64,000 bases of DNA from a virus (Duplodnaviria; Caudoviricetes): the IMG/VR virus record IMGVR_UViG_3300028364_000013; one strand, given 5' to 3'. Numbering within the stretch: position 1 is the first letter of the stretch; each line of letters starts with the position of its first letter. The notes under the pieces are model-generated. The model was given only the letters and a program-made list of their open reading frames with translations. It did no database searches and had not been told where the DNA came from. Positions 20,920-49,858 of this stretch are shown here, piece by piece. Made by a program: the position numbers and the translations under genes.

Positions 20920-23900
20920 CTTATTTGTTTTTGTGGCGTTTTAATTTCAATCCAACCCTCTCCAGTATAACTTCCTGGAGCTTCAAGTCCAAGCTTCATT
21001 GTTACAAAAGTAAAGTCTCCATAAGTTTCTTTTACATTTTCAAATGTAATATCCTCTTCTTTAAGTGAATATTCACAAAAATCAGAATCCCACATAGATT
21101 CTATGAAACCTTTCATGATTTCTTTGTTTGCTTCTTCATCAGAAAAGTCAACATATCCAACTCTAAACCTAATTGTATGAGGAAGATACTTTTCTGCAAG
21201 CATGTATCCGTATTTTAGCTGAGCAATTCCACTCATCCTTGCAGGCTTTATAGGCATCTTGTTCTATTCTTAACCTTTCTACAGGCTTCATGCCTGGCTT
21301 CATTTTTGAGTATTTTTCTTCACTCACTTTTGAATGCCACAGGTCAGAAAGCCTCCTTTTCTCTTGAGCTTCACCCCAAGTTACTTGAATTACATTTCTG
21401 GTCCAAGCATTGTGGCTAAGACTCGGCATCTTTGTGTGCATGATGTACTCAGCCAAAAACTCTCCAAGACTATGTAAGTGTGTGTTTTTCATCAATTAAA
21501 ATAATTTAGTGTTCTTAAAATGATAAATTCTTTGGTGATTATACTTTGCAACTTCAGAGTCAAGAACATAATCTTCCTTAACAATTGTTTTAAGCTCCGC
21601 AGTGCTCTTATGTAAGTAGTTTCTTACAACTCTTGCAAATCTATTGTTAGACTCGTCAATCTCGTCCTGAGTAGCCTTAACGTTAAACATATCTGCTTCG
21701 TCCATCTCAGAAATAAACATACCAGTAGAAAACCCAGAAAGCTTGTACTTCTTCACAAACTTGTCAGCATTACACCAGATGTAAACATTTTCCTCTTTCT
21801 CTCTTAGCAAATATACCAGAGTAGAATCAATAATAGGAGTGATGTGCATTGGATAACCATTGCTGTACTTAACAAATCCCATTCCATGCTCAGTACCATG
21901 ACCAAGCATAATAATCCTATCAGCTTCCTTCATAAGAATCTTCAACTTGCTCTTACCAATTGGTTGGCGAATGACAGTTGCATTTATGTCACGATAAATC
22001 GTGCTCAGCATTTCTGTCGTTGGGTCGGCAGGATGTATTACTAATATGTTCTTATGATTGTTCATTATGATATATGTTCAAAAAATTCTATTCCACTTAT
22101 AATGTATCCATCTCCATGGTCACTACTTTTATTGTTGTAATGCTGTTCAATTTTTTTTTCTGCATCATCTTCTGTTGCAGCCTCAACAGTATGATTTCTA
22201 ACTCCTTTTTTAACTTCATGGTCCATATATGGATGGAAGTCGTAATGTACTTTAGCTATGAATAACATAATCTTATAATTTAGCTGCCATCTCAAGCAGT
22301 TGTGTTTTCATGTATGATTTAATATTGCCTCCAACTTTTTCAAGAGACCCAGTAAGTTTGTTAATCATCATATCAACATCCCCATCAGTATCAAGCTTCT
22401 CGGCTAAGCTCAACAAAGAAACACTCTCTGTAACAAGAAATGGCTTAAGAAGTGAATCAATAGCCTTTTTAATGTCTTCAACATTTCTCTTGCATTTAAC
22501 AGAAACCCAGCTCCATTCACCTGTCCACAAGTTAACAGAAACTTCTTCAGCATTTCCATCATCTCCAAAACCTGCTTCAAGGCCCCAGAGAGTCATTTGA
22601 ATATCTGTTGAGCGATACCCATAGATATTCTTTTTGTTTAATGTATATACATCACTAAGCCCTTGTTTGCTAATTCCAATTGAATCCAGGTAATCATGGA
22701 TAATAAGCTCCTCAGTTAAACCTTGTCTGTATGTGGGAACGAAATACTCTGCAGCATAAGAAAGATTTGCAACGTGTTGCTCAATCTGAGATTCTAACAC
22801 CTGCATATCATTTGTTGGCTTGAAGCCTTCTACAAAGTAATAACCACCTGTAGTGTGCTTTTTGATATGCCAGATATATTTATCTACCATCCTCATTCCA
22901 CGCTCGGTCTTAGACCAAAGTTGAATGTGGTTATCGTGCTTGTAAACTTTGTATTTCTCTTTTAAATCCTTTAGTCTCATATAGCTTTATAAAATATATT
23001 CAATCTCACTAACTTCATCATACCCTTTTGGTACATCAGTTCTATCTTTAAGTGACACTTCAACAAAAGTAATACCCTTAACTCTCTGTCCACCATACTT
23101 GTGAACATGAATCTCATCATCTTTGATGTGAGGGAAATCTTTCTTAAGAGTTTCAACCATCTCATTGATGTGAGAAAGATTTGAACTATAATGATTAGCG
23201 TGGATTTGAGCCTTTGCTAATTGCACCCCATTCGAGGGTTTGAATAATTTTGTAATTTCTGCCATAGTTTCTTATACGAAAAAAAACCCCAGATGTTCTA
23301 TCTGAGGTTTAGTTTTTTTATTTAGTGCTTTTGAAGTCGAATTCAAGAAATCGTTTTGGCAATCTTTTTAGCAATAGACCATCAAGTTTTCTGTTGTATG
23401 CATCTTCAGGATATACTTTGAATCTGTAGTCTCTCGGTCTCTTTCTCCTCGCATTAGTATCAGGAGATGAAATCCAGAAATCACACTTAAATGTTTTTAT
23501 GATAGTTCTGTAGGTTCCAGTTGGCCTTCTGTAGTATGGAAACTTATCCATAGAATTGGTATGATACAAATTCATTACTGACCAGCACTTCCATCCTTTT
23601 TCCTTAATGTACTTTTCTATATCTCCATAAAACCCTTTTAATAAAAAGTTTCCTTTCGATGTATAAGTCCAAGCAAGGCACCACGCACCTCCAGACCAAT
23701 CTGGTTTTCCTGATGGAGTCACTTCAATGACTGGGAATTCATTTTCCATATTCTAATTTTATAAAAATAAAGGGCTTATGACTTGGCTTTGTGGGTGATT
23801 GAGCAATCTTATAGGCACCTCCGCCAAGTCATTAGGGTGATTGAGCATTTTGTAAGCACCTCAAGCCTTTATTATTTCAAATATAATACTTTTAATTGTT

Positions 23901-23924
23901 ATACGCAAAACTATTCCAAATGTT

Positions 23925-24587
23925 CTAACTCTTAAGCATTTTTTTAAACGCTGCCATAGAAGTGACAGAACCCTCTTTAAGCTTGTATTTACTCTCAAGA
24001 CCTCGACACAATACATCAAATTTCTTTTCAAGTGATGCATGCTTCTTTTCCAATTTCTCTAAATCTTCCTTAGCGTTGATGTAGCCCCACTGGTATTTTC
24101 CGAATAGCATTTTCTTAATGTCGAATTTTCTCTTGTGAAGAAGAGGTGCTTGCTTTATCACCTTTGTTGAATGTACACTATCTCCTACATATATGAGACC
24201 TGCGTACTCTGGAATCTCACTCACATCAATAAGGCCATGTGGACATGCAAAGAAGAACCTGTTCGGCATCTTTACTGTTTGTGGGTTTACTTCTTTCTCT
24301 GGAGACCTTCTAATCTGCTTCTTCCATCGCTTGCTGTATCTGTACTTAGCATCTTTGGTAACAGAGTCCTGCTTTCTGCCTTCAAACAATTTGTGCTTGA
24401 ACTTCAAGAAGTCAGCAGCATAGTCAGACTTAGAAATCTTAACTTCAACTTCGTAAATATATCCTGATTTAGCAACAGAAAAAAAATCTGATTCCCAATC
24501 ACTACCAAAAATATATCTATTATGAAAATGATGGTCGTGAGTGGAAAACAGATTTCCTATTATGTCTTGTATTTCTTTGGCGTTCAT
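23925..24587 (-). CDS. MmcB-like PD-(D/E)XK nuclease-fold protein
   Basis: ESDFF...YEVEVKISKSDY.ADF.K and FFFACPHGLI..EIPEYAGLI. Confidence 0.65.
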   Translation of the reverse strand: MNAKEIQDIIGNLFSTHDHHFHNRYIFGSDWESDFFSVAKSGYIYEVEVKISKSDYAADFLKFKHKLFEGRKQDSVTKDAKYRYSKRWKKQIRRSPEKEVNPQTVKMPNRFFFACPHGLIDVSEIPEYAGLIYVGDSVHSTKVIKQAPLLHKRKFDIKKMLFGKYQWGYINAKEDLEKLEKKHASLEKKFDVLCRGLESKYKLKEGSVTSMAAFKKMLKS

Positions 24588-24642
24588 TATAAAATATAAA
24601 AAACGAAAATTACAATCCCAAATCTGAAGCTATTTTTTAAAC

Positions 24643-24677
24643 AAAAAAAGGTTTTCTATATTTAGAAAACCTTTTTT
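24643..24677. terminator. Intrinsic terminator hairpin
   Basis: AAAAAAAGGTTTTCTA/TAGAAAACCTTTTTT inverted repeat. Confidence 0.7.
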
Positions 24678-24697
24678 GTCATTAAAGCATTTGGCTC

Positions 24698-27026
24698 TTA
24701 TGTTTTTGTTAGAAAGCTATATATTGGTTTAGTTTCATACTTATCTTCAAAATCCTTAGTAATGTGATTTAAGTAATTAGGTATTGTAGTTACTATAGGT
24801 TCACAATGAAATAATTTCTTTTTACTCTTACCTACAAGCTCAAACCATTTTTCTTTAAGTTGTCTAACCTCATATTTTTCTTCTTTAATCAAAATATTTG
24901 CATAATAAGGAGGTAAATTATCATAATGCTCTTTATACCCCGCTCTCAATAAACAATTTGAAAATTTAGAAATAGGCCCTATGACAATTATGCACTCGAA
25001 ACCTTCCAAGAACTTTTCAATCATTTCTAAAAGTTTTACTTTAGACATCATGGAACCTACTGGAACTAATAACGTTAATTCAGATGATTTATTTAATATG
25101 AAATTGTGTTCATCACAATGGTCCAATAACTCTTTGTATACTTTTTTTTTAAATATATCTTTTTTAGGATTATTATTCATAACTATTTTTAAATGTGATT
25201 TGTGTTTGTTGCCTTTCTCATATAGCCTTTCTTTTTGAATGGCTCAATGAAAATCATTTTTGTTTCCTTCAATCCTTTTCCGAATGGCTGCAGTCTAAAA
25301 TGTGCGCTTACATCGAATCCTTCTGTTCTTATTGATGTGACGTTCCAATTGCTATTAACAATGGTCACAGGAATGTCTGGAAACGTATTAATAAGCTTTC
25401 CAGTCTTAGTTGTCCCATGTTTTCTTCCTGGCTCAACTATTATCATTTCATTATCAGAGAAATAAAAGAAACAAAGAAGTTTATATATCTTTGATTCCAA
25501 TTCAGTTACCACTGGGTCGTCCCAGTTGCTACTAAATCTCATTTCTTTTTGATTGTAATGAAATAGGTGAAAATTAAGAACGTGTTCTCCATGCTTCTCT
25601 TCTGAAGGAGTTGCAACAACCCAACAGAAACACAAGTGTCCTTTGAATGCGCAAAATCTAATAAGTGTATTGTTTGAATAGATGAATGTCATCTTCTGCT
25701 CTGGCAGTTTATCAAATATTGTCCAATCAAAATGAATACCTTTTGGCTTCACTTTGAGCATGTCAACCTTATCTAAAATTGTATTGGTGATGTAGTAAGC
25801 ACGTTGGTCGTACTGAGAAATTGTGTGATTTAGAGTCTTCAGTTGAGAACCTTCTTCTTCATCAAGCTCTTCATTGTTTTCAATCTTTCTAATTGCTGAT
25901 GGCAAGTGTGACTTCATCATCTCATAGAGAAGACCTTCATCAGTTAAGAATCTATATGCTATGTGTTTTTTTAAAACCATTATTTTGCTTCTTCTGGTTC
26001 GCATTCTCTTGTGCAATTCTCATCAACAAGAAGTATTGCGGTCATTAAAAAATGCTCTCCATCTGTACCAGGAAGTTTTGTGTAACCTTCGTTAAGACAA
26101 ATAGCTTTTATGTCACTTGTATAAAAGTCATGTAATTCCATTTGGTCAAACACTTCTCCAATATCATTCTTAAGAAAAAATCTTGATGAAGACTTTACAA
26201 GGTAAGTGATGGTCTTGTACTTTTTAAGGCCTTTAACCAATTCATCTGATGTCTTGCCTCCAAACCCAAGAGAAACCCCTCTCGGAGACTCCAGTGCATC
26301 TGTTAGGTCATAAGGGTAGTAGCCAAATTCAGTACCAACTCCTTTATGCTCTTTCTTGACGATTTGAATCTCGGCTAATTTTTTCTTTATATCGTCATCG
26401 CTCACGCTTTTATAGCTGTAATACAATTTAGGTATTTTTTCATAAGTGTCGCCCCACGCCTTTTCTCTCTTAAGCTCTGCTTCAAGTCTTATCACATCCT
26501 TCTCAAGGTCGTGAATTTTCAATTCTTCGTCAGTCATTTCAGTGATACTCTTTTCCATAATTTATGCTTTAATTAACTCATATACTGTTAGTGGAACTAT
26601 AGCAATCATTGCTAACGTACCAATAAGCATGCACTCTAAAAATACTAAAAACTTCATCTTTATTTATTTTAAACTTAATTTTGAAACTACAGGTACAATC
26701 TCATGAAAATAATTCTCCTTTTCATAATAAAGTACTTCTATCTTTTTTCCTATTAACTTCTTAGCAAACTCTTGATTGAAATTTATTAAAATATCATCGT
26801 CATAATCAAATAAGATTGTGTCATCAACATAAATATCAACGCCATATCCAAATATCATATCAGAGTTGTGTTCTTTTACAGATGAGTCAATGTAGCCAAT
26901 ATAAAATGACCTGCTATCTCCTATGTCCTCAATAGCCACTTCAATGAAAGTAACTGTCTGAGTCTTAAAATCCTGACCATAAGCCAGAGAAGACAAGAGT
27001 AATAATATGATGGTTAATGTTCTCAC
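24698..27026 (-). other. Hypothetical CDSs (24698-25180, 25189-26016, 25980-26558, 26664-27026)
   Basis: Co-oriented ORFs; 26664-27026 has a signal-peptide-like N-terminus. Confidence 0.7.
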
Positions 27027-27058
27027 TCTTTCTTATACGCAACAAAAACAATAATGTT

Positions 27059-27423
27059 CTATTCCTCTTCGTAAGAATCTGATTTTTCATGATTATGAAG
27101 CATGCACATTGTCTGATAATTCTTAATGTGATTCTTTCCACCTTTAGATTTTGGTTTGATGTGGTCTATTGTAAGCATCATGAGGTCGCCTTCGTGGTCA
27201 TAAGCATAAAGGTCCAAGTGGATTCCTCCACCGTTATCCTCTCCAAGTCCAAAGTGATAACCAGATAACTCACATCCAGAGTCAACACACTCAACACCCA
27301 GCTCAAGCAATATAAGTGCTCTTCTTAGCTTTATCTTTCTATCAGTAATCTCTTCATCCAAAAAAACTCAACGTCTCCGTGAGCTTTAATATCATCTATT
27401 GGATAGGTCTTCAGATTTTTCAT
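27059..27423 (-). CDS. HNH endonuclease (likely start MKNLKTY near 27423; 1-nt homopolymer frameshift near 27360)
   Basis: LTIDHIKPKSKGGKN...NYQTMC..HN.EK. Confidence 0.8.
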
Positions 27424-27636
27424 CACCATCAAGGTTGTCAAAAATAGTTAAAACCGCTTTGTTTATGTTGTCAAAATTCATGTTAATTCATTTTAATTTT
27501 TAAATAATTTTCTCTGGCCTCTATCTTCTTTTTTAAGTACTCCTGATAGAGTTCTTCATTGAATCCTATTTTTGGACCATCCCAGTAGGATTTGTATTCT
27601 TCTAAAGTTTTATCTTTTTTAGGCATTTGTTTTACT

Positions 27637-27677
27637 AAAAAATGGAAGTGCCAATAAATATTATGACACTTCCATTT
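27637..27677 (-). terminator. Intrinsic terminator hairpin
   Basis: AAATGGAAGTG/CACTTCCATTT stem downstream of 27682. Confidence 0.65.
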
Positions 27678-27681
27678 ATTT

Positions 27682-28059
27682 TTATTTTTTTAGAGCCACT
27701 AACTCATCAATAGATAATTCTTTCATATCTGATTTTTGTTTTTCAAAAATCAAAGCATCTATCTCTTGATTATGAAGTTTTGTAGCTGCAGCATTTTTTT
27801 CAGCATCAAACTCTTGCTTTTTAGTAATATATATCTCTTTCAATACATCGAAAATAAGTTTTTGCTCTGAATCTACAGCCATATTTTCATCAAGAAATGA
27901 TAACTCATCATCATTTTCTTTTTTAAGTTTTTCCTTAACGTTTTTAACTATTATAGATAGTTTGTTAAGACTAAGGTCCCAAAGTTGTTCAACAGACAAA
28001 GGTCCTTGTGAAGTTTGTATTCTCAATTTTAATCGAGAAGCTTTCATGAAATTGTTCAT
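27682..28059 (-). CDS. Phage coiled-coil protein, partner of the 717-aa ORF
   Basis: ASRLKLR..T..G.LSVEQLWDL motif recalled from large-phage proteins; not searched. Confidence 0.6.
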   Translation of the reverse strand: MNNFMKASRLKLRIQTSQGPLSVEQLWDLSLNKLSIIVKNVKEKLKKENDDELSFLDENMAVDSEQKLIFDVLKEIYITKKQEFDAEKNAAATKLHNQEIDALIFEKQKSDMKELSIDELVALKK

Positions 28060-28078
28060 AATTTTTGTTTTTTTATTA

Positions 28079-30232
28079 TTAATTGAATTTTACTTTTATT
28101 GTTCTTTTAAATGTTCCATATAATTTTAAAATCAAATCATCTTTTACTGTGGCATTAAATCCAAGTCCACACAGTTGTTTTTCAGTAGGCTCAAGCATTG
28201 ATGTTAGACCAACTACCTCCATAACCTTTCTGTGGCCAACAAGCTCTGAGTTTAAATTTTCATTATGAAAACTCCTAAGTGAAACATCAGACCTACACCC
28301 ATCAATCATAAACATATAATGTTTATTTCCTGAATTATTATCACCCCAATGATTAGGGGAAAGACAAACAAGATTAACCTTATGAAATTGATTTGTGTCG
28401 ATGTTGAATATACTTTTACTTACAGTGTTTGATGAGGTGATTTCCATTTTTTCTGAAGTTTCAATTTTAAATTCACCATCTTTTAACTTAATTATACAAA
28501 CCTCTGCAGTATTTCCATTACTCCTGCTTTTATCAAATTTTAATGAAGTTATTTCACCACCATGCTCTATTTCAATAAAAAAATCAGCCTTAAATCTATT
28601 GCCACTATAATCAACGATATAAACTTTATATGAACCATTTTTCATTTTGTTTAAATCAGAATAAGTTATATTCTCAACTCTTTTTTCAGGTGTTTGATTT
28701 CCATCAACACCTTGAGCATCCAAGTCAAGCATTCCTGAAAAAGGAGATTCTTTTCTCACATTTCTATAACATATATCATATCCACCTGGTTCTTCTAAGT
28801 GCAAATCATAATCATTAGTAGTATCTGGAAAATGAAGTCTGACATTTAACACTCCATCAATATTTCCACCCCTACCTTTTACAGCTTCCTTAATTAGTGA
28901 TTTTCCAGCAAGATTTCCTCTAAATGTCCAAGAAAATGGATTACTCCACTTGAACATGTTTTTAGATTCCTTATCAACAGTTGTTAACGCTACAAAGTTT
29001 CCACCCATTCTATTTTCAACAAAAGCCTCAACAGAAGTACATGTTGGAAGTATGTCTGACATAAACTTTTCAATAGACACTTCTTCTATTCCATCAAACT
29101 GACTTCTCTTGTGTCTTGTTGGTTTTGATGGTATAACTGAATCAAATACAGAGGCGGTTTTTACCTCACCACTTCCAACATTTGAATGTAAAATCTCATT
29201 TACATTAATATCATCAATTGTAGCAAATCTCCTTTTAATAGAATTATCAGTATATCCTAATTCATAGAAATCTTTCATGGCCACCTTTTTCATAGACTCA
29301 GTTAATGGAGCTGTTGCTTTCATGAAGTTTGCTGGGTCAACACGCTTATTCCAAGTTCTACAAGCAGTGTTAAGCTCTACACCCTCTGCTAATTCTACGC
29401 AAAGAGTTCCTATTAGTTCGTTTCTAAATTTAGAGAAAGGAAGATTGTAAGAAGTTACCCAACACCAATTATCTTTTTGTTTACTGGATAATTTTTCATA
29501 TTCATTTTTGAATGGGATTATTTGCTCTATCTTATAAAGATGAGTTTTACCATCCAACAAAGAACCTTGGTTTATCAAATCTCTAACTAACTCAAGAGTG
29601 TCAATTGGAATTTCTTCAAGACCTCTCTTAAACACATCTTTTGATTGTCTGTAATCAGATAAAATAGTTGCTTGTGACTTTCCAGAAGAATCAACAAACT
29701 TTTTATTCAAAACACCATGAAAGTGGAAGAATTGATATGACTTACCTGGAGTTACAACTCCAAACTTTTCAGCCTCTTCTTTAGTATATGTTTTAAAGTT
29801 ACTCTCAAAACCAAGTTTATAAACTATTTGACTTTTATTTATTTTTTCATATGGCAAATCATTCAACTCATCAAAAGTTTCAAAAAACACATCTTTTATT
29901 GGCGCACTCTTTAATATTTTTGACATGTTCTCACAAGAACTACGATAAACATCATCTTCTTCTAAAACTAAGTCCCACATGGTAACTATTTTGTAAGATT
30001 CATCAATGGCTACAACATTACCATATCTTCTAATAAAAGATTTATCAAGATTACAATTGTTAGTCGAACTCTCTGGGTCTCTAAAAACAGGGTTGTCTCC
30101 TTTTTTAAAAGATGATATGTATAAATCCCATAACTTATTACCATCCACAGATGACCTAAATAATTTACCATTATTTTGAATATCTGAGAATCTCTCTTCT
30201 ATTTTTTTTGAAAATTCACTAAATTTTGACAT
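28079..30232 (-). CDS. 717-aa phage protein with C-terminal YfaP/DUF2135-like beta domain
   Basis: DYDLHLEEP...GMLDLDAQG...RVENITY pattern; has its own promoter at 30257-30285. Confidence 0.55.
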   Translation of the reverse strand: MSKFSEFSKKIEERFSDIQNNGKLFRSSVDGNKLWDLYISSFKKGDNPVFRDPESSTNNCNLDKSFIRRYGNVVAIDESYKIVTMWDLVLEEDDVYRSSCENMSKILKSAPIKDVFFETFDELNDLPYEKINKSQIVYKLGFESNFKTYTKEEAEKFGVVTPGKSYQFFHFHGVLNKKFVDSSGKSQATILSDYRQSKDVFKRGLEEIPIDTLELVRDLINQGSLLDGKTHLYKIEQIIPFKNEYEKLSSKQKDNWCWVTSYNLPFSKFRNELIGTLCVELAEGVELNTACRTWNKRVDPANFMKATAPLTESMKKVAMKDFYELGYTDNSIKRRFATIDDINVNEILHSNVGSGEVKTASVFDSVIPSKPTRHKRSQFDGIEEVSIEKFMSDILPTCTSVEAFVENRMGGNFVALTTVDKESKNMFKWSNPFSWTFRGNLAGKSLIKEAVKGRGGNIDGVLNVRLHFPDTTNDYDLHLEEPGGYDICYRNVRKESPFSGMLDLDAQGVDGNQTPEKRVENITYSDLNKMKNGSYKVYIVDYSGNRFKADFFIEIEHGGEITSLKFDKSRSNGNTAEVCIIKLKDGEFKIETSEKMEITSSNTVSKSIFNIDTNQFHKVNLVCLSPNHWGDNNSGNKHYMFMIDGCRSDVSLRSFHNENLNSELVGHRKVMEVVGLTSMLEPTEKQLCGLGFNATVKDDLILKLYGTFKRTIKVKFN

Positions 30233-30331
30233 GTTTTTAATATTAATTTTATTTACTTATACACAATTTATTATAAAATGTTCTAAATAGAACATTAATA
30301 TTTATTGTACTGGGTAATTTTTATGGAAGAG

Positions 30332-30466
30332 TCACTTTTTAAAATTTTTAGCAACGTAACTTGCCATATCATCCATTGTATTGTAATAAGGGATGTTATA
30401 TTTTTCAGCCTTGTGAATCATATATCTCATTTTATCAGCATTCTTTGGATGACCCAGAGCAATCTT
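30332..30466 (-). pseudogene. Orphan duplicate 3' end of the phosphoesterase-NDT gene
   Basis: Translates KIALGHPKNADKMRYMIHKAEKYNIPYYNTMDDMASYVAKNFKK*, versus KCVLSYPKNAEKMRYMHMMAEKRDIPIYHSMKEVAEYVAKKFK* in 31215-32219. Confidence 0.85.
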
Positions 30467-30589
30467 TCAAAGATACAATTTTATTATAAACAATCCAATT
30501 ATTTAGTTAACTTATTTTATTTGTCCTATTATTATACTCATTATTCTGATTCCAGAAATTATGACATTTAATTAGGTTTTCATTTTCAT

Positions 30590-30970
30590 TTTTACTAAGC
30601 CAATCTCTAAATTTTAGAATTCCCAAATAACAATCAAGTTCCAAAAAAATTATTACCACACTTTGTGAGGGGATACTTAGAAGGGGATGGATGTATCGGT
30701 GTATATAAAACCAAAAATATGATTTCTATCATAGGAACACAATATTTCTTATCTGGAATGAAAGAGTGTTTGGAATCCTATGAAATACCTGGAGTTTATT
30801 TGAATCAAAAAACTAAAAACACCTGGTCTCTAACCATATGGAGAAAAAGTAGTATTTTAATGTTCAAAAAACTGGTGTATGATAATTATTTGAATAATAA
30901 TTCAACTAACTCAGAATTAATACTCAATAGAAAGTATGAAAAACTATTGACCATTGAATCACTTAGATAG
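30590..30970 (+). pseudogene. Truncated LAGLIDADG homing endonuclease
   Basis: LEFPNNNQVPKKLLPHFVRGYLEGDGCI motif; N-terminus missing or frameshifted; ends LNRKYEK. Confidence 0.75.
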
Positions 30971-31214
30971 TTCAAATTGTTCTACACAATGGTCATAACA
31001 TAGCCATCCACCTCCAGTAAACCAAATTCTAAATATACCCATAAACCAATCTGTTTTTTAAAATTTGTTCTTTATGATTACTATTCCTTCTATCTTGTAA
31101 TTTCACTCCCACCAAATCTTCACCCCATTCAATTCCCCAACCATCATGTAATGCTTGTCCGCAATTAAACTTTTTACCAAATCCGTCATCAATATATTTA
31201 ACTATTCCCATAAA

Positions 31215-32219
31215 TCATTTAAACTTTTTTGCAACATATTCTGCAACTTCTTTCATAGAGTGGTAAATAGGTATATCTCTTTTTTCAGCCATCATATGCA
31301 TATATCTCATCTTTTCTGCGTTTTTCGGATAACTTAATACACACTTCCCGCTATTAGCCCAATATCCAAATTCTATATTGGTTGTGAAACCTGGCATTGA
31401 GTCCAATTTCCTTGGAACCCAGAACAAAATTAGGTCGGATGCATTTAAAGCTCTCTCCTCCCATACAACTTGAGTGTCATAATCATACCCATCTTCTGGG
31501 TTTTCTTTCTCTGGCATCAAAATATGACCTTCATAACCTGCTTCTCTAAGTTTCTTAACCATAAGAGGTCTCCAAGTCTTAACATCAAGCTCACGAGGTG
31601 TTGGTCCTGCTAAAAACACTTTATCTCCTAAAGGAGGAATCATATCTGTAGCATACACATCAGCACCCTCAATCAAGTTAAGGTTTGCTGGAAGTTCTCC
31701 AGCAAATACATGCTTGTCATAAAACTTTCTGATTGCGTTCATGCAAAATATTAACTCATCTTCTGACACTGGAAGGAAGTTCCAAGCATCACATCCAACA
31801 TTAACCATATTTCTTTGAACTTTCCACAATCCGTGGATATGTCCAACAATGTTAAATTTATTTGCTACAGCTTTTCCTGGATAATGGTTTAAGTGAACCA
31901 TTTCTCCGTTTTTAAGCTTAAGGTCTGCGTTTACAACTACAGTTGCAAATAGTTTATTAAGCTTTGCCATTGGCCTTGGGTCATCGTAATTTCCCATTAC
32001 CAGATGTATTTTTCCATTAAGCCTCTCTACAACATCAAGACCTTTGTTTGTTGTTGCAAAGTCTCCAAGATGAAACACTTCATCGTTTGGGCCAACTACA
32101 GAGTTCCACTTTTCAACAAGATAATCCTCTTGTTCCTGTACTGTTTTAAATGGTCTATAAAATAGATTAAATCTATCATCACCATAATGAGAATCACTAC
32201 TGAAGAATCTTTTTTTCAT
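31215..32219 (-). CDS. Calcineurin-like metallophosphoesterase fused to a nucleoside 2-deoxyribosyltransferase-like domain
   Basis: SDSHYG, HLGDF, GNYD, LNHYP and GHIH motifs; C-terminal VFLAGPTP...WEERAL...FWVPR...TTNIEFG. Confidence 0.85.
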   Translation of the reverse strand: MKKRFFSSDSHYGDDRFNLFYRPFKTVQEQEDYLVEKWNSVVGPNDEVFHLGDFATTNKGLDVVERLNGKIHLVMGNYDDPRPMAKLNKLFATVVVNADLKLKNGEMVHLNHYPGKAVANKFNIVGHIHGLWKVQRNMVNVGCDAWNFLPVSEDELIFCMNAIRKFYDKHVFAGELPANLNLIEGADVYATDMIPPLGDKVFLAGPTPRELDVKTWRPLMVKKLREAGYEGHILMPEKENPEDGYDYDTQVVWEERALNASDLILFWVPRKLDSMPGFTTNIEFGYWANSGKCVLSYPKNAEKMRYMHMMAEKRDIPIYHSMKEVAEYVAKKFK

Positions 32220-32240: not shown

Positions 32241-35200
32241 TTAATCTTTCCAACTTCCTTCAGGCAAATCCATAAGCTGAAGATGTGTGTCTTCAAATCT
32301 AACATATTTATTTGGAGTTTCACCACTAATTAATTTTGGTTTAATTTCAACAACAATTATCCACCACATCCAAAAACAACGATTTACTTTTGGCATATAA
32401 TGTGACTTACAATTTACGTATTTGAAGTCTTTTCCATTTTCAACACTCCAGTAACAACTTTTAAAAGCTTCCCAATAAGGTTTTCTTCTAAATTTAGAAC
32501 CTTTTGGTTTTTTTGAAATTCGTATTGAAATATTTTCGTTATTTACTAAATTCATATCTAATTATTTTCTAAACCAATAAATATTACCATCAGACATAGC
32601 ATCGCCCCAATTGATGTAATCATCTCTCATTCCTTCATTAAAATCTTCTTTGTCCATATCATCCCAATCTGGGTCTGGAGCTGTATGATTAGTTTTTCTT
32701 CTTTCATACTCTTTCCACCACTCTTTTTTTGAAAACCCTGTTGTATAATCAGGAATAATTCCAATCTCCCAACCACAAGACTTAACATCAACAGTAGCAG
32801 GAAGTCCATACCAACAAATTTTTCTACCCTGTTCTGATTGTGGGTCAAGAAAATTATATACATGTTCACAAAGAACTACTTTAAGATACTCAGCTTTTGA
32901 CATTGCAAATGACATACCTCCATCTCCACCTGTTGTTCCAAAAGAGTATACAAGTATTCCATTGCACCACATTTCACAAGAAGTTCTTCCACTAAATCTA
33001 AGTTCATCCCATTTAACTTTAGAATTAGTTCTTTGCTTAAATCTAATATCCCAAGATAACCTTTCTATACTTGATGACCATGCTTTAAAATGCTCACTAT
33101 CTTCTGGCGGAATTAAATCAACTGGAAGTCTGTCAGAATAATATAACCACCAATTTTTTGGCTCTCCATTGTAACCTTGATGTTCTCTTCCTTCTATGCT
33201 ATAAACATCATACTCTTTATCATGTATTAATACATGAAAAATTTTTCTTGGTGTTCCTATGTTACTTTCTGATTCCATTTTTATTTCAATTTAATTTCCA
33301 AACTTTCTTTAAACCTAACAAGTAATTCTCCTACTAATAAATCATAATCATTATTTGGTTCAGCTGGAACATTTCGGGAAGGTATTTTTCCTTTTATGTA
33401 CATATTGTCAGTAGCTGTATCTACAGCTTCGATTAACTCTTCATCAGTTAATGTGCATTTTCTAAATGATACTATCGAATTCATATTTTTATTTTTTAAA
33501 ACTTCCAAAATTTACTATCATTTTTTCCAATGATTTACTTATCTCTTTTTTTGATTTACACAAATGTTCAATCATCTCATAAGGACTTCCGCCTCTTGAA
33601 ATTGATTCGAATATCGTTCTGAATTCTGCATCGAACATGAACTCTTTAATAAAATCTGGTGTAAATTCTTTTTCTAAATCCTCCTTACTTATTCTTTTAT
33701 GGTTTTTATTAAAAGAATCCTTCCAACTAAATCTACAATCAGTATCTCTACAAATCCACTCCACATCAACTGGGTCATGTGATTTATCAAAATTGTTACA
33801 CTTAGGACATGTTTCTGCTGTGATATTTGGTTTGGTATTTTTTTCTAATAAGATACCATCAATAGAAAGCCAGTCTTTTTGACAAACATTATGAATTCCA
33901 CCAGAATAATCACCTTCTAACTCTACTTGGTTTTTTCTAATCCCAACCACCTTCATCATTTCTCTACCTTGATATAAATCAGTGTGATATACTTTTTGCC
34001 CTAATTCTAATTTCATTTTTATAAATTTATAAATCATTCATTTCTATGAATAATTCTATTTTTCTTCTAACCAATCTTGATGCTCCTGGTCTCCATGTTT
34101 TATTTCTTGAAATAATTCACGCATAAGTTTTGCACAATCTTTCACTGGTACATTAAGTTCTCCAGCCCATTCAATGTGGTCAGATTCCCTTGTCCCATTT
34201 TGCACCTCTTCATCAAATTTGTTTGCAACGAAAGTAGTATTCAATTTAGTGTTTAGTAAAATTGTTTTTCCTGATATTACTTTATTCATAATTATTTATT
34301 TTTCTATCCCCATACTATCAATGTGAGCAGTCGCAATATCTCCAGATTTTTTCACAGATGCTTCATGACTATTTGAATATGCATAAGCAATATCGTCAAT
34401 TTCAACATGCATTTTTTCAAATAATTCAATAAATTTTTTTAAATTATCATGTCTTTCTGGGTCACGAGAACCACAACCCAATGGTCTAATTGGCCCAACT
34501 AATTTAGTAATTACTTCGTAAATTTGTTCTGTCTCCATTTTGTTTTTTTTTAAACTTTAAACAATTACATTCTTCTTTTTTGGTTTTAACAAAAGGAATT
34601 CCTTGAGAAGTAAACTCAACTTCAAAAAATCTCCATCCAGATACCGTTCTAATCCACATAATCAGTTTATATTAAAAGTGATTCTATATTCATTTTGTGT
34701 CTATTTAAACTCTATCTCAATTACTCTTGTGTTCTTCTAAATTCCAACAGCCTTATCTTCCTTGCCTTCTTTTCTTAGCTTTTCAATTAAGTCAAGCCTA
34801 AGCTTTTCAGTATCTTCTACAGAAAGTTCTCCATGAAAATTTGTTGTTGGGAAAGCATTGTATCCAAGTTCATCACAAGGTTCAATTATTCCGACTGGCT
34901 CATCGCAGGTGCTGCAAATTGACCATATAAATACCTTTCTCATCTCCAAGCATTAAAGAAGTTAAGAGTAAGTTCTCCTACAGAACATACATCCGCATCT
35001 GATTCCTCAAAGTCATCCAACTCTTCATTATAAGCGCCCAAGTGATTTTCAAGGTCTTCCTCAAACTTATCAAGCCTGGCAGCCTTTCTTTCTAATTCGT
35101 CAAGTACTTTTGAATCAATTTCTACTTTTACCATTTTTGTCTTTTTTAATTTCAAGACAAATATAAGCAAAATTATTTCAAATCTTTAAGTTTCTTTGTA

Positions 35201-42900: not shown

Positions 42901-43913
42901 TACTAAAGAAATTGATAAAAATGGAGATAGAATTAGTGATAAATAAATAAAGTTTGATGTCATACTTTTCCACCAAAAACCTTCTGGCTTTACTGGTGTA
43001 AGTTCTCTAATTTCTTCTTTTGACTTAATTTTAATTTTTAACTTAATGACTTCACATCTCCTGCACTCAACATAACTCTCATCTTCATCAAAAGTATAAG
43101 CCATTCTACCTTCCAGTTTTGGGTGAGGTATGACTCCAGAAATTGTATTTACTTTAAGTCCACTCTTGAAAGGTTTTAACTTATACTTCCCAATGTTTTT
43201 ATCATCGAGAGGTCTCTTCTTGCACTTTTTTCCTATATTCGCCTCAAATTGTTCTACATCCATAGTGGTTATACGATTATTATTATAAAATGTTCTTTAC
43301 TTTCTTTCATTTCTTTCATTCTGCTTGATGCCAAAGTAAGTTCCAAAAGAACCACCAAGCAAAAACAATATAACTGGCACAACATCTCCACTCAACACAG
43401 ACTTTATTCCTATTGAGAAAGAGATTAGCGTAAGTATTCCGACCCCGTTGCCAGTAAGTATGGCTGCTAACTTCTTTTTCTCAGCAGTATAAATCACATT
43501 TAATGTCCTAAGATATATGAACATAAACTGTGATAAAAACACAATTATAGCAGACCAGTATGGGTCATTTAATATGTCTTGAATTAATTCTTTCATTAAA
43601 ATTTGTAACACGAAGGAGGGTTCAATCCTTCTAAATGATTCTTATATTCAGCCATACAATCTCTATGTGCTGATTCTAAATTGTTCTTTAAATCTCTTAA
43701 AAATGACTTATACCATTCTTTATCTTCATCACTGCGAGTCCAGCTTCTTCCATTCTTAAAAAAATCCTGTAGCGCATCTTTAAGTTCTTTTGCACCCTTC
43801 TCATAAAAACCAACTCTGCACTTATACCAATTAGTATAAGAAAGACAGGTTCCTTCTTCAGATGTTATGTCTGGATACCTTTCTCTAATATCTTTAAACT
43901 CTTCGTCTGTCAT
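39926..43913 (-). other. Hypothetical CDSs (39926-40141, 40142-41239, 41223-41642, 41675-42262, 42275-42676, 42673-43263, 43596-43913)
   Basis: Co-oriented abutting ORFs. Confidence 0.75.
43297..43611 (-). CDS. Small membrane protein (DUF5698/DUF2179 N-terminal-like)
   Basis: Three hydrophobic segments; FIYLRTLNV and GGSFGTYFG. Confidence 0.55.
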   Translation of the reverse strand: MLQILMKELIQDILNDPYWSAIIVFLSQFMFIYLRTLNVIYTAEKKKLAAILTGNGVGILTLISFSIGIKSVLSGDVVPVILFLLGGSFGTYFGIKQNERNERK

Positions 43914-43993
43914 TTGTAACTTTTTAAAATACTATCGTTATATAGTTGTACGCAAAGTTAGAGCAAATGTTCTAATAAAAAAAATATAAAAAA

Positions 43994-44022
43994 TAGAACA
44001 TTTTTAATTTGTGTGCGTATAA
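43994..44022 (+). promoter_or_regulatory. Recurrent phage promoter in plus orientation, back-to-back with the copy at 43946-43974
   Basis: TAGAACA-N15-CGTATAA upstream of plus-strand ORF 44053. Confidence 0.85.
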
Positions 44023-44052
44023 CAAGTTAGAACCAATTTAAAAAGAATAGAT

Positions 44053-45899: not shown

Positions 45900-46134
45900 T
45901 TATAAAATTTGATGAAAATGATTTATTACAATAAAAGCCAGCGTAACACTTGATACAAATGCGTCAAGTTTTATAACTATTAAACTTTTTAGTCGTGCTG
46001 TTTTTACAAAACCTTCTTCTATAGAATCCTGTAGAGAATCCAAATGCCAGGAGACATAAAAACATAATCCACTGACCAGCAAATAAAACTCCTACGATAG
46101 CCCAGAAAAAATATGCTATTCCCATAAATATGAA
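45900..46134 (-). pseudogene. C-terminal half of a membrane-protein gene split by the cassette array
   Basis: FIFMGIAYFFWAIVGVLFAGQWIMFLCLL...IVINHFHQIL begins immediately after the terminal TAAC of the array. Confidence 0.6.
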
Positions 46135-46219
46135 GTTAGGGTGCATTAGTCCACTTTTAAGGCAGGGTGTGCGTATTGCATTAATTTTAAAAGCCCTGTC
46201 AATCACTCTACCCATATCA

Positions 46220-46489
46220 TCATTTTTCACCTTCATTAAAGTGAAACACACCCTTTAATTCCATATCCGAGTTTTCACTTCTTTGAGTCCCTATCGCTAT
46301 GTGCATCCAGTCACACTTATTAGAATCTATTGCACATAATACACCTACTTTATAAATGTAACTTGTTCGGTTATCTAACCATGCATCAGAAAGTGCGTCT
46401 TCGTTAACGTCTTCGCTATAATCCCAACTAGTCCATTCATCATTAAACTCGGATATTGCTTTTAGTTTTTCTTTAAGGTAATTTTCCAT
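46220..46489 (-). CDS. Cassette C hypothetical protein
   Basis: Starts just downstream of the attC-like site ending at 46502. Confidence 0.7.
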   Translation of the reverse strand: MENYLKEKLKAISEFNDEWTSWDYSEDVNEDALSDAWLDNRTSYIYKVGVLCAIDSNKCDWMHIAIGTQRSENSDMELKGVFHFNEGEK

Positions 46490-46501
46490 AATTAAAATAA
46501 C

Positions 46502-46635
46502 GCACCCTAAAAATGTATAAAAATAATAGCTATTAGGTGCTGTTTATAAGGCTATTACTTGTTAATTAAATTTATTCCTATCAGATAGCTAACGCATATT
46601 TACACGCTACTATTATTATACTAAACGTTATGTGC
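46502..46635 (-). repeat. attC-like site
   Basis: GCACATAAC...TTTAGGGTGC with paired arms GTATAATAATAGTAGC/GCTATTATTTTTATAC. Confidence 0.75.
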
Positions 46636-46639
46636 AAGG

Positions 46640-46930
46640 CTAACTTACTGCTTCCAAAAGACGATTTTTAATCCATTCAACATTTGGAACACCATTGCCA
46701 TTTAATACTTCAAGAACTTCGTTTATGGCTTCTTTCATTTTTGGTGCAGAAATAATAAGTTTAGCGTCTTCCATTCTTATTTCATCTGTATATCCATTGT
46801 GGTCGCCATAATCTTCTTGCATTACTTCAAGTCGTGGATAATGTCCATTTTTTTCTGCATTTGGTAAATCTGCTTCTATAAAAAACATTGATTCACTTAC
46901 AACTCTTACTCTCCAATTTTCTGTATTCAT
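46640..46930 (-). CDS. Cassette B hypothetical protein
   Basis: Stop codon lies 4 nt before the next attC-like site; contains DAKLIISAP. Confidence 0.8.
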   Translation of the reverse strand: MNTENWRVRVVSESMFFIEADLPNAEKNGHYPRLEVMQEDYGDHNGYTDEIRMEDAKLIISAPKMKEAINEVLEVLNGNGVPNVEWIKNRLLEAVS

Positions 46931-46969
46931 TTCGTTTTTAAATTAAATTTAGTGCTGATAAACCGCCCA

Positions 46970-47105
46970 GCACATAACAGCGTGCATAATAAATTGGCAA
47001 TTCAGTGGTTAAATGAACCTTAGTTTTTCTAATCGAGTTCTGTGGCAGTAGGAAGTTTTCGTTTTCAAAATCGCCAACTTCTCATACACGCAAAACGTTA
47101 GCAAA
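46970..47105 (-). repeat. attC-like site
   Basis: TTTGCTAAC...GTTATGTGC with arms GCGTGTATGAGAAGTTGGC/GCCAATTTATTATGCACGC. Confidence 0.8.
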
Positions 47106-47113
47106 CATTTGGG

Positions 47114-47362
47114 CTACTGCTTAATTTCATCTTTCAGTTGCTCAAATCTTTCTGTTGTTACTATTATTTTTCTTGGTGTATTTTCAATTGCTCTCTCAAG
47201 TGATTGGAATAGTTCTTTTTTGCTTTTACATAAATGCTCTATTGCTTCATAAGGCGTTAATCCTCTCGCCATAGATTCAAAGATGCTTCTAAACTCTGCA
47301 TCAAATTGAAACTCTTCAAAGAACTCTTCCGTAAACTGTGATTTTAATTCAAATTGGTTCAT
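47114..47362 (-). CDS. Cassette A hypothetical protein (paralog of the C-terminal domain of 33489-34037)
   Basis: FDAEFRSIFESMARGLTPYEAIEHLCKSKKEL. Confidence 0.8.
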   Translation of the reverse strand: MNQFELKSQFTEEFFEEFQFDAEFRSIFESMARGLTPYEAIEHLCKSKKELFQSLERAIENTPRKIIVTTERFEQLKDEIKQ

Positions 47363-47373
47363 AATAAAAACGA

Positions 47374-47471
47374 TTTGCTAACACAACCTATACACCATAA
47401 AGCAATATAGTATTGTGCTAAGATTAAACATTGTGCTATGCTTTACGGTGCATAGCCAAACCGTTAGCAGC
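47374..47471 (-). repeat. attC-like site
   Basis: GCTGCTAAC...GTTAGCAAA with arms CTATGCACCGTAAAGCA/TGCTTTATGGTGTATAG. Confidence 0.8.
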
Positions 47472-47694
47472 AATACTACTTTAGTTTTTCCAAAGAAGCT
47501 TTCTTTAGTGCCTATTTTAAAATCAACTCTCTCTTCTTCTGTCATTTCTCTTTCTTTATCACACATCAAACATCTCATTTTTGAAAATTCAGTCGGCCAC
47601 CTAAAGTTTATAATTTTCGTTCCTCAAATTCCAATCCTTAGCCTTAACGTTATAGGTAAGGCTGAACATCCGACATTGCAGATTAAAAATTCAA

Positions 47695-47839
47695 GCTCTA
47701 TTTTCTTTTCACCGTTTTCGCTCTCTTTATTTAAACCCTCAAGAAGCCTGAGTCTATATAAGTATTTTTTTGGATTTTGTAAAATACCCAATTCGAATAA
47801 GAAAAATAAAGTACCTAATATGTAAAATAAATTTATCAT
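47695..47839 (-). pseudogene. N-terminal half of the split membrane-protein gene
   Basis: MINLFYILGTLFFLFELGILQNPKKYL..., then reads into attC-like sequence (ICNVGCSALPIT). Confidence 0.55.
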
Positions 47840-47857
47840 GTTTTATAATTTTTATGT

Positions 47858-49858
47858 TTAACAACCATCGTTTAAGCTAATTAAATAATCTCCACCCTTT
47901 CTGTCTATGGAGCATCCTTCAACGTGAGTGAAATCATCAACACCACACTCTGGGCAAACAGTAAAAGAAGGCTTAGCGTAATTGTTTAAATACCCAGAAA
48001 GACCTCCTCTAAGAACTCTATCCATTGAATTCATTACAATAAAGTCAATTTCTTGTAACTCTGTTACTGAAGTTTTTGACACCACACCTTTCAATCTTTC
48101 ATACGTGCTATTACACGTTTCTACAAATAGAGAATCAGAATATTCCTTTAGGTTTTCAAGAGAATTTTGAATTGAACTCATGAGGCTGTCATTTGACACC
48201 ACAAATTCTGGAGCCTCTGATGTTGGAGTAACATATTTTTCTTCTACGAAAAAACTATGAAGATACTCAACTCTATCGCCATCAGACATTATAACCATAG
48301 CCATTAAGTGCTTTTGATAATCTTCTGGCCATACAACTTTGGCAAACTCAGGATTTAAAATTATATCCCAAGTAGAACCAATCTCAACTCCATCTGGAAG
48401 GTGCCACTTACCATTTACCATAGTAATTCCGCCTATTATCTTAGGGTTATTAATTGACATATAACCACCCTTGAAACCTTGGATTATTATGTTCTTTACT
48501 GTATGCAAATCTTCCATTATACTTTGAATTTATCTCTTTGTTCTAATTCTTCTTGCTCGATTACACTAACGCAATCTGCGCAAACAAAGATAGACTTTTC
48601 TATTGTCTTATCCAAAACTTTTACATATACTTTTCTAAATATGCCATTATAGTGTGGACACCTGTTTGGATGATACTTTTGAAACCTCCAGGTTGGTGGC
48701 CTTAACTTTAGCTTGTGATTCTCAACAAGAGGCTTATCCAGAGCTTCTCTTCTAATTTTGTTCATTAAAATCCTGGACACAAAAAGGAAGGCTAATGTTA
48801 AAAAACATAGCCCTCCAATAATTAGCAATATTAAAATGCCAACATCCATTAAAACAATTCCTTAAGAAGAGTCTTTCTATTTTTAAGGTCAGACTTGTGA
48901 CCAGAAAGAGCTTTCTTTGCCTTTTCAAGTTTGTAATCCGCATCATCAACATCTTTTAAGCTAAAAGGCATGCTAAACTTTGATGCCTCATATTCTTCTT
49001 CAGCTATCTCCACATCAGCTTCTGCTTTAACAATAACTCCTTCAAGTTTTGCAATTTGAACTCCCAATTCAGACTTTCCTGATTTTCCGTTTCTTTTAAT
49101 CTCCTTTTCTTTGTTACCAAGTTCTTCAAGTCTATTTTTTACTCCTTCTTCGTATTTCATAATTTATGATTTATTTGTTTTTATTTTCTAATAAGTAATT
49201 CTGATGAATATATTTTTCTTCTTTCTGGTTCTGTATCTTCTACTTTTTTTCTTACGATTAATTCGTCATCTTCCATAATTTTAATCGACATCGCTCCATA
49301 TCTCATAGCATCAACGTCAGATTCAAAAATGAAATCAGCCCTATCTCTATATTCATTGCCAATAATTTCAACACTTTTTTGTAAAGATTTTGCATCTACT
49401 ACAATAAAGTATTTATAATCATATGTATATGGAGCGTCAGTTGTAAAAGAAACTCTTTCGTCTTCACCAATATTATCAACAACGTATGTTTCTCCAAATT
49501 TACACCCTAAATATCTCCCTTCAGCTACGCATAATAGCGTATCTCCACTTTTTGGTTTTCTAAAAATAGAATGCTCATCTGATGGTCTTTTGGCTTTATT
49601 ATAATAATTATTTATTTCTTGATTAGATACTTTATAACCTTCAACTTTATCTTTTTGGTTAACTTCAGATATAAAACCATTTGATATAAATATGCACCCC
49701 CCATCTTTATTGTATCCAATTAAAAGTTTAACTCCATATTCAGGATGATTAGACTCTTCAATACAAGAAAAAGGCTGATATGGAAATTCATTATCTTCCC
49801 ACTTAGCAATACTTTCTTTGTAGTTTAACCTATCTGATTTTGGATAATGTAACTTCAT
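47858..49858 (-). other. Hypothetical CDSs (47858-48517, 48517-48849, 48849-49160, 49181-49858)
   Basis: Co-oriented ORFs downstream of promoter 49877-49905. Confidence 0.75.

Follow-up and report, generated by a model that had tools for sequence, protein, structure and literature searches.

The stretch analysed here, the window, comprises 64,000 nucleotides of DNA from a phage (Duplodnaviria; Caudoviricetes) and represents the minus strand of bases 40602-104601 of the IMG/VR virus record IMGVR_UViG_3300028364_000013, which is 168,582 bp long and estimated to be 72% complete. Between window positions 46135 and 47652, on the minus strand, it carries a small cassette array, in which four units, D, A, B and C in this order, each with a single open reading frame (ORF), are set apart by three imperfect palindromes of 81-119 nt. 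The genes at 45900-47900 all lie on the minus strand, along which one reads a 71-aa ORF, D, palindrome 1, A, palindrome 2, B, palindrome 3, C and a 53-aa ORF. An earlier note on this DNA had described an integron-like cassette array carried by a jumbo phage and inserted into a resident gene. The palindromic sites are located where that note had placed them, at the right coordinates, and its interpretation of the kind of element was largely right. The jumbo phage is borne out by the length of the record (168.6 kb) at 72% completeness and by a protein of the small-array locus that is also recorded on a 364-kb contig. A very large, Bacteroidota-linked phage is supported as the host of the array.

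In three of the units the two ends are complementary to each other on the minus strand, a covariation that supports an integron-like build of the array. Cassette A (47098..47463, 366 nt) is composed of site 1, GTTAGCAAA, a leader, ORF A (47362-47114, 82 aa) and TTTGCTAA, and its ends, GTTAGCAAA (47382-47374) and TTTGCTAAC (47105-47097), are exactly complementary over 9 nt. The same holds for cassette B (46628..47097, 470 nt), comprising site 2, GTTATGTGC, the leader GGGCGGTTTATCAGCACTAAATTTAATTT, ORF B (46930-46640, 96 aa) and GCACATAA, with GTTATGTGC (46978-46970) and GCACATAAC (46635-46627) as its ends. Cassette C (46136..46627, 492 nt) consists of site 3, TTTAGGGTGC, ORF C (46489-46220, 89 aa) and GCACCCTAA; its ends, TTTAGGGTGCGTTA (46511-46498) and TAATGCACCCTAAC (46148-46135), are complementary at 12 of 13 positions. 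The end cores are of the GTTA/TAAC type, with C starting TTTA instead of GTTA, and the ORFs stop 8 nt (A) and 4 nt (B) ahead of the end box. Both the complementarity within each cassette and the stops 4-8 nt before the next site had been described in the earlier note. Beyond the cores, the five variable bases pair perfectly in each of the three units, for which we estimate a chance of about (1/4)^5 each. Exact GTTAnnnnn/nnnnnTAAC pairs of 9-mers form two clusters across the genome, 10 within 6.2 kb and 2 at the small array, compared with about 0.1 per kb elsewhere. The array closes with the end box GCACCCTAAC (46135..46144), directly followed by the flank TTCATATTTATGG without a palindrome. 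A reading as a transposon or miniature inverted-repeat transposable element was rejected, since terminal repeats that match within units and differ between them fit cassette exchange, not target duplication.

The palindromes have the form of attC sites, being imperfect, with AAC/GTT as outer boxes and a further, paired set of boxes inside, and differ from them in spacer geometry (5 vs 1 nt). Site 1 (47383..47463) has the 5' spacer GGTTT and a stem of 17-19 pairs (15 Watson-Crick (WC), 2 G:T), site 2 (46979..47097) the 5' spacer GTTTT, the 3' spacer T and a 24-pair stem (18 WC, 5 G:T, 1 mismatch), and site 3 (46512..46627) the 5' spacer GTTTA and a 16-pair stem (14 WC, 1 G:T, 1 mismatch). Non-standard stem positions are thus few and mostly G:T on the minus strand. 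The folding energy of the whole site is better than in shuffles for site 1 only (z -2.7), with a z of -1.3 for site 2. When ten sites taken only from other phages were used to build a covariance model, it matched site 2 on the minus strand (25.7 bits, E 3.6e-4) and, weakly, part of site 3 (14 bits, E 0.5). The first hairpin scans gave 57 and 48 matches against 37-45 in shuffles, a background near the signal, and a loose 5' motif was no commoner than in shuffles; stricter criteria combined with clustering alone were informative, and under these the three sites of the small array are the only clear ones in the window. At 44012-44037 (minus strand) a junction-like ATTGGTTCTAAC-TT-GTTATACGC without a palindrome scores 14.3 bits (E 0.4) with the same model, and at 43913-43989 metagenome contigs are deeper and have loose ends and odd joints; possibly, this is a repeat or one more relic site.

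A larger array of the same build is located in the same genome, outside the window, at 23843-30933, about 27 kb from the small array. This main platform comprises about 16 units directly upstream of a recombinase gene and on the same strand, 10 of them with perfect 9-nt complementary TAAC-type ends. Its last unit ends GCCACATAAC and continues without a palindrome into GACTATATATAAACACC, giving the platform junction xxxxTAAC^GACTATATATAAACACC (^ marks the junction), and the ATG of the recombinase follows 53 nt on. The terminal end of the small array is built in the same way. The covariance model matches five main-array sites, all on the coding strand. Among the products of the main array are an MT-A70 methyltransferase (E 2e-28), an RHH protein and a protein that matches SAM-methyltransferases weakly, and many of its small ORFs belong to no family; that such cargo counters host defences is a guess. 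Many cassettes of the main array and of its relatives (L009, L019, L041) have a common 5' leader, GCGGATT ... GAAACACTAAACTTTA ... ATG, and a common 3' trailer, AATCGAAGCAC-nnnn-GTAGYATTG-nnnn-TAAC, parts of which look complementary, so the outer stem may exceed 9 bp.

The platform sits between an RNB-domain ORF (genome 22624-23742, E 1e-110) and an S1-domain ORF (30933-31310, E 3e-10). We rejected an in-frame split of an RNase gene by the platform, given that relatives already have the RNB and S1 parts as two adjacent ORFs: L043 has them as neighbours with only two stop codons between, and in L070 and L071 the two matches are about 20 nt apart (the region between was not read through). This adjacency in relatives implies that the genome position of the platform is not fixed. 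A third small cluster was observed on the other strand at genome 128431-128945 (128.4-128.95 kb), where one 339-nt unit, GTTAGCGTT...AACGCTAAC, lies between two palindromes opening TAAC/GAAC-GTTTT-GTGTATG.

Cassette D (47464..47649) was recognized by its likeness to this family. It begins with the 5' half-site TAAC^GTTAA-GGCTAAGGATTGG, the unit opening GTTAAGGCTAAGGATTGG, followed by the leader GGATT...TAAACTTTA and an ORF from 47578, and its end is GTAGTATTGCTGCTAA / GTAGTATTGCTGCTAAC; the ORF lacks a stop of its own and reading continues to 47378. The half-site and leader resemble a main-array unit, ...GCATATAAC^GCTAGGGGTATGGAGCGGATT...ACTAAACTTTA, and the 3' end agrees with the consensus of the family, ATTGCnnATAAC, and with the recurrent GTAGYATTG. 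A backbone gene had been considered for ORF D and was dropped on account of these matches. What had earlier been listed as a half site near 47600-47655 is, at 47640-47663, the start of this fourth cassette, with its 5' half-site and leader. Among the encoded proteins, that of ORF B matches phrog_1273, of unknown function (E 6e-5), while ORFs A, C and D and the flanking ORFs gave nothing firm in Pfam or PHROGs, and Pfam did not bear out the 'HicB family' annotation that JGI gives to relatives of A.

The recombinase beside the main array (genome 30130-30933, 267 aa) is the only tyrosine recombinase of the record. The earlier note had expected an enzyme acting in trans and proposed a search elsewhere for an IntI-like one; a phage-encoded candidate does lie 27 kb off, at the end of the larger array, so it need not be sought elsewhere, and it is of Xer type, not of IntI type. 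Its Pfam domains are Phage_int_SAM_4 and Phage_integrase, and the NCBIfam ranking places XerA_Arch first (169.5 bits), then the integron integrase TIGR02249 (152.6 bits in two pieces; cut-off 265), XerD and XerC, all below their cut-offs, so the enzyme is not an equivalog of any. It aligns end to end with Pyrococcus XerA (PDB 4a8e, E 1e-34) without a gap of the IntI-insert kind. Against VchIntIA (2a3v), residues 18-172 align to 17-174 and 210-261 to 260-311, which leaves 37 residues where IntI has 85; this two-piece alignment indicates that the enzyme lacks the IntI-specific insert (about 35 or more residues near patch III, intI_Cterm), the feature by which IntI is defined (Cury et al.). The system is therefore integron-like and not an integron. 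All catalytic residues are present by reading of the sequence (GLRVSE, KGRKDR, HTLRHS, GHSSSKTTEIYTH), and the protein belongs with the simple two-domain tyrosine recombinases near XerA/C/D.

The association of this enzyme with cassettes extends across a viral family. It is encoded on at least 107 other viral contigs in IMG/VR (59-82% identity; contigs up to 362 kb), and the density of end pairs with exact 9-nt complementarity, counted without de-duplication of loci, is 0.67 per kb on its upstream side vs 0.15 per kb downstream (271 vs 63). Often 34-74 nt separate the end of the last cassette from the recombinase ATG, and nearly every locus listed has xxxxTAAC^TAT(T/A)ATATATA before the gene. 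The conserved TAAC^TATTATATATA, 34-110 nt before the ATG, would correspond to an attI-like insertion site. At 125 non-redundant junctions between two perfect cassettes, adjacent boxes match at 2.84 of 6 bases, whereas the ends of one cassette match at 6 of 6 by selection; the pairing partner of a box therefore lies across the ORF, as in integron cassettes. The consensus of end and start is ATTGCnnATAAC^G(G/T)TT ... T-GTTATnnGC. In 107 sites the 5' spacer has its mode at 5 nt after AAC and the 3' spacer is mostly 1 nt before GTT, which upholds the earlier statement that the sites deviate from the proteobacterial consensus and have an asymmetric spacer. The 107 distinct stems hold 1725 WC pairs, 248 G:T pairs on the coding strand and 51 A:C pairs (p = 3e-32).

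This strand bias, and the fact that a conserved leader, GCGGATT...ACTAAAYTT...ATG, follows each site and is common to cassettes with different ORFs, would also be expected if the hairpins were regulatory elements on the transcribed-sense strand, like the promoter-early-stem-loop (PeSL) cassettes of T4-type phages, with genes shuffled by homologous recombination between repeats and the recombinase serving another job such as integration or dimer resolution. PeSLs give mini-circles without a dedicated recombinase (PMC2839356). We consider this explanation quite unlikely. Homologous exchange in conserved motifs would not yield end boxes that covary cassette by cassette, the breaks are fixed in TAAC, and the conserved junction ties arrays to the recombinase gene in dozens of loci. 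In addition, a consensus scan, which does not cover Bacteroidota promoters, found 2 sigma-70-type promoter-like sites at the small array vs 9.2 expected and 0 intrinsic terminator-like ones, and no Rfam family matches the sites.

The same kind of array was found in a 635-kb uncultured phage (LR745206.1), in which one cassette leader shares about 90% identity with that of B and precedes a different ORF; a 76-nt match to this genome is the only one among GenBank phages. One cassette of LR745206.1 (L086:2800-4700) encodes a Dam-like DNA methyltransferase, by reading of the translation. The cassette proteins A-D have no tblastn match in the 80 recombinase loci. Neither viral contigs nor five related records yielded usable relatives of the 219-aa and 304-aa proteins in the flanks. 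Almost all cellular relatives of the enzyme, at 38-58% identity, come from Bacteroidota, in line with the Bacteroidetes link proposed earlier. Most of them show no array (0.20 end pairs per kb upstream, 0.41 per kb downstream). A Bacteroidales metagenome-assembled genome (MAG) contig with 9 cassettes (L102) and MAG contigs L120 and L088 have the same TAAC^TAnTATAT junction, and a complete Maribacter chromosome (L130) carries an array with covarying ends upstream of a short recombinase. On Gaetbulibacter (L163) and Aquimarina (L157) contigs the arrays lie downstream of the short enzyme, with sites of the form xxxxCAAC^A..GTGTATAA.

Comparison of close relatives shows that phages that are nearly identical differ by whole cassettes, with breaks in the TAAC core. 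Contigs L015, L026 and L027, from three samples, are 97% identical around the recombinase gene and share a 916-nt cassette (GTTATACAC...GTGTATAAC) that is 100% identical in all three. In L026 and L027 it is the last unit, adjoining the recombinase as TAAC^TATTTTATATAAAC (TAAC^TATTTTATATAAACAGG) with no palindrome after it, whereas the L015 copy is found 2.4 kb further upstream and continues into a palindrome, TAAC^GTCCGATG.... From these contexts it follows that the palindrome belongs to the cassette after it, that exchange takes place within the common TAAC, not placeable to the base, and that the site at the recombinase gene receives cassettes. The cassette polarity of the earlier note, with the crossover at G/TT, has to be revised: arrays end xxxxTAAC straight into the flank, each palindrome lies upstream of its own ORF, and exchange is placed in TAAC on the coding strand.

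Cassettes of the small array, too, occur in other surroundings. Runs X1 and X2, from the source lakes, contain 92% of the sequence words, and no RNA run is listed as containing them. Assembled metagenome contigs from lakes and salt lakes, which show presence and not excision, have a depth over 46308-47711 far above that of the flanks (e.g. 379 vs 0-3 in X6). Their context switches exactly at 47096/47097 and at 46135, the latter for a 93%-identical copy of cassette C in X6. A further switch is seen shortly ahead of the start codons of A and C, with site and leader retained and another ORF in place. Relatives of protein A form at least 120 clusters (65-96% identity). In a 207-kb phage such a relative is a resident gene without sites, with homology from the ATG to about 10 nt past the stop, and in an unrelated 46-kb phage with NinG (L175) A is a lone cassette: TTATTAAC^C, a short hairpin, GTTAGCAAA, the ORF (94% identity) and TTTGATAAC^AAATG. 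Within the window, A is 63% identical to the C-terminal domain of a 182-aa resident gene (33489-34037, minus strand). Such matched pairs of resident gene and cassette form bear on how cassettes are made. At L178:480-1000 a relative of A (91% identity) was found inside a site loop, in the order end box, 5' arm, leader and ORF, 3' arm, start box, an arrangement unlike that of the arrays.

The small array is bordered by two small resident ORFs, which the earlier note had taken for the halves of one membrane-protein gene split by the block. The 71-aa ORF (47624..47839, minus strand), the former N half, has one predicted membrane helix, and its 3' part ends CCTATAAC, which is the left junction; by analogy with junctions in relatives, the array would start within or just after the TAAC core at 47649..47652. 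The 53-aa ORF (45964..46125, minus strand), the former C half, has two predicted membrane helices and an ATG of its own 7 nt past the junction (46134-46128 between). The right flank resembles the junction consensus only loosely, and the array is therefore read as an insertion at a secondary site.

An interruption of a single 119-aa membrane-protein gene, as opposed to insertion between two small overlapping genes, appears improbable to us. Joining ...CCTATAACG to TTCATATTT... does give one open 119-aa frame, whose N part, by reading of the sequence, contains a single hydrophobic stretch and whose C part contains two, and predicts the empty allele CCTATAACGTTCATATTT. This join needs a left cut after TAACG and a right cut after TAAC, one base apart in the two cores, and an in-frame join arises by chance in 1 of 3 cases. 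Equivalent cuts in both TAAC cores leave CCTATAACTTCATATTT instead, so that the 71-aa ORF ends ...LPITSYLWE after 5 codons and its stop forms a ATGGGAATAG overlap with the ATG of the separate 53-aa ORF, as is typical of coupled genes. The predicted empty-site join reads CCTATAA^CTTCATATTT. Exact searches of viral contigs for three predicted junctions and both flanks found neither an empty allele nor a second allele of either flank, and the junction pattern was not found in JGI metagenome contigs. No fused or other homologue turned up either: the 71-aa ORF has no homologue besides itself among 5.8 billion proteins and no Pfam or PHROG match, and the 53-aa ORF matches no family in Pfam or PHROG. 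The split gene of the earlier note, its intact fused form in relatives and its empty allele are therefore unsupported.

What computation has shown, namely the architecture, covariation and strand bias, the recombinase link and the cassette-level differences between close phages, makes it probable that the small array is an off-platform ('satellite') cluster of four cassettes belonging to an integron-like, site-specific gene-capture system encoded by the phage itself. On the coding strand a cassette consists of C, a 5-nt spacer, an imperfect palindrome, a spacer of about 1 nt, GTTAyyyyy, the leader, the ORF and y'y'y'y'y'TAA. Along the folding strand come the cassettes, the junction and then, in sense, the recombinase gene, an order that a classical integron shows along its bottom strand; here, however, the ORFs are on this strand and read towards the recombinase. 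We infer catalysis by the phage recombinase, single-stranded substrates and circular intermediates, and likewise how the satellite arose. The coding strand would fold into a hairpin in which a TAAC/GTTA stem leads through an asymmetric internal loop to a long stem, and the recombinase would exchange strands within the 5' TAAC. Cassettes could then be excised as circles, in which both ends pair perfectly. Their usual point of re-entry would be the junction next to the recombinase gene, with a secondary TAAC used now and then, as in the small array.

Several observations weigh against this explanation. The IntI insert has been called essential for attC recombination (PMC4889954; PMC8138268), and the phage enzyme is without it; its gene, moreover, lies 27 kb from the small array. 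Site 3 folds no better than shuffles (z +1.4), the weak whole-site values of sites 2 and 3 being due to their long loops, and the covariance model from sites of other phages misses site 1. The ends of cassette D are not complementary and its site is only a half-site; D may be old or inactive. The G:T strand bias would fit selection on mRNA too, as the ORFs are on the same strand. Metagenome assemblies can be chimeric where arrays are rich in repeats, which weakens the comparison of L015 with L026, and neither a circle junction nor an empty site was found among the contigs searched.

For the wider family, we lean towards the view that phages of Bacteroidota, many of them giant, and some Bacteroidota chromosomes share a widespread gene-capture system parallel to the integron, with an Xer-type enzyme lacking the IntI insert and with ORFs that are read from the folding strand. 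Its role in phages would be to store accessory genes and bring them into new orders, for instance genes for DNA methyltransferases or for small proteins of unknown function, and to seed satellite arrays. If so, it would be a viral counterpart of the defence-gene 'biobanks' in bacterial integrons, and phages, giant ones too, would have their own means to acquire and reorder genes, probably against host defences. A large natural family that keeps the logic of the integron without the IntI domain would mean either an older and simpler chemistry than has been assumed or two separate origins of it. In the literature on integrons combined with huge or jumbo phages, Bacteroidota, Xer or 'integron-like', with subscription journals outside coverage, we found no description of this system.

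Arrays of attC-like sites in phages have been reported before. Using IntegronFinder on 10,705 phage genomes, Qi et al. (2023) identified three host-derived complete integrons in temperate phages and 17 clusters of attC sites lacking integrases (CALINs) (PMC9892861). Like the small array, clusters of this kind in virulent phages have no integrase close by, and some hold DNA methyltransferase cassettes; unlike it, they were called by the canonical attC model, mostly comprise 2-4 sites and have no associated phage recombinase (PMC9892861), whereas the present phage has a full platform and its family extends to more than 100 viral contigs. The locus itself has three sites, with the nearest tyrosine recombinase 27 kb off, and might count as a CALIN (at least two attC sites, no integrase nearby) if the canonical model called them. 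It could consist of ordinary attC cassettes from a bacterial integron, moved by a host IntI in trans: a Polaribacter phage is among the phages for which CALINs have been reported (PMC9892861), Bacteroidota are known to have canonical integrons (10.1101/2022.02.06.479319), and the sites carry AAC/GTT cores. We hold this to be very unlikely. The same sites fill the array beside the insert-less recombinase of the phage, as they do on more than 100 viral contigs, the orientation of the ORFs is opposite to that expected from the polarity of the sites, the spacers are asymmetric (5:1), and bacterial loci with such arrays also carry the short enzyme.

The phage-encoded system shares with integrons, above all with sedentary chromosomal ones that have uniform attC sites, and with CALINs arrays of single-ORF cassettes, imperfect palindromes with AAC...GTT cores, complementary ends within each cassette, a junction at the recombinase gene, one strand favoured for folding and clusters off the platform; the recombinase gene, the junction and the polarity of the sites are disposed as in classical integrons. 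It differs in its 267-aa Xer-type enzyme without the IntI insert and in its ORFs, which lie on the folding strand, co-directional with the recombinase, and not on the top strand leading away from attI. It differs further in the spacers (5 nt vs 1 nt), the junction TAAC^TATTATATATA, the conserved leader and the carriage by very large phages. Classical integrons are cleaved at AA^C on the bottom strand. With Xer proteins (archaeal XerA, 4a8e; XerC/D) the enzyme shares its best end-to-end match and the same two-domain 'simple' recombinase build; the neighbour conserved beside it is an array of cassettes. Xer enzymes, whose task is the resolution of dimers at a single dif site, are not known to serve cassette arrays. 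They can act on folded single strands, and XerCD also integrates the folded single-stranded CTX phage genome. The nearest phage analogue is the PeSL cassette of T4-type phages (PMC2839356, PMC4122927), which likewise combines small orphan genes with a stem-loop and an expression signal and is shuffled between related phages. PeSLs have a sigma-70 promoter and a terminator, a pair that the consensus scan, with its limit for Bacteroidota promoters, did not reveal at the small array, and they recombine homologously at variable points without a dedicated recombinase, whereas here the ends covary, the core is fixed and the recombinase is linked.

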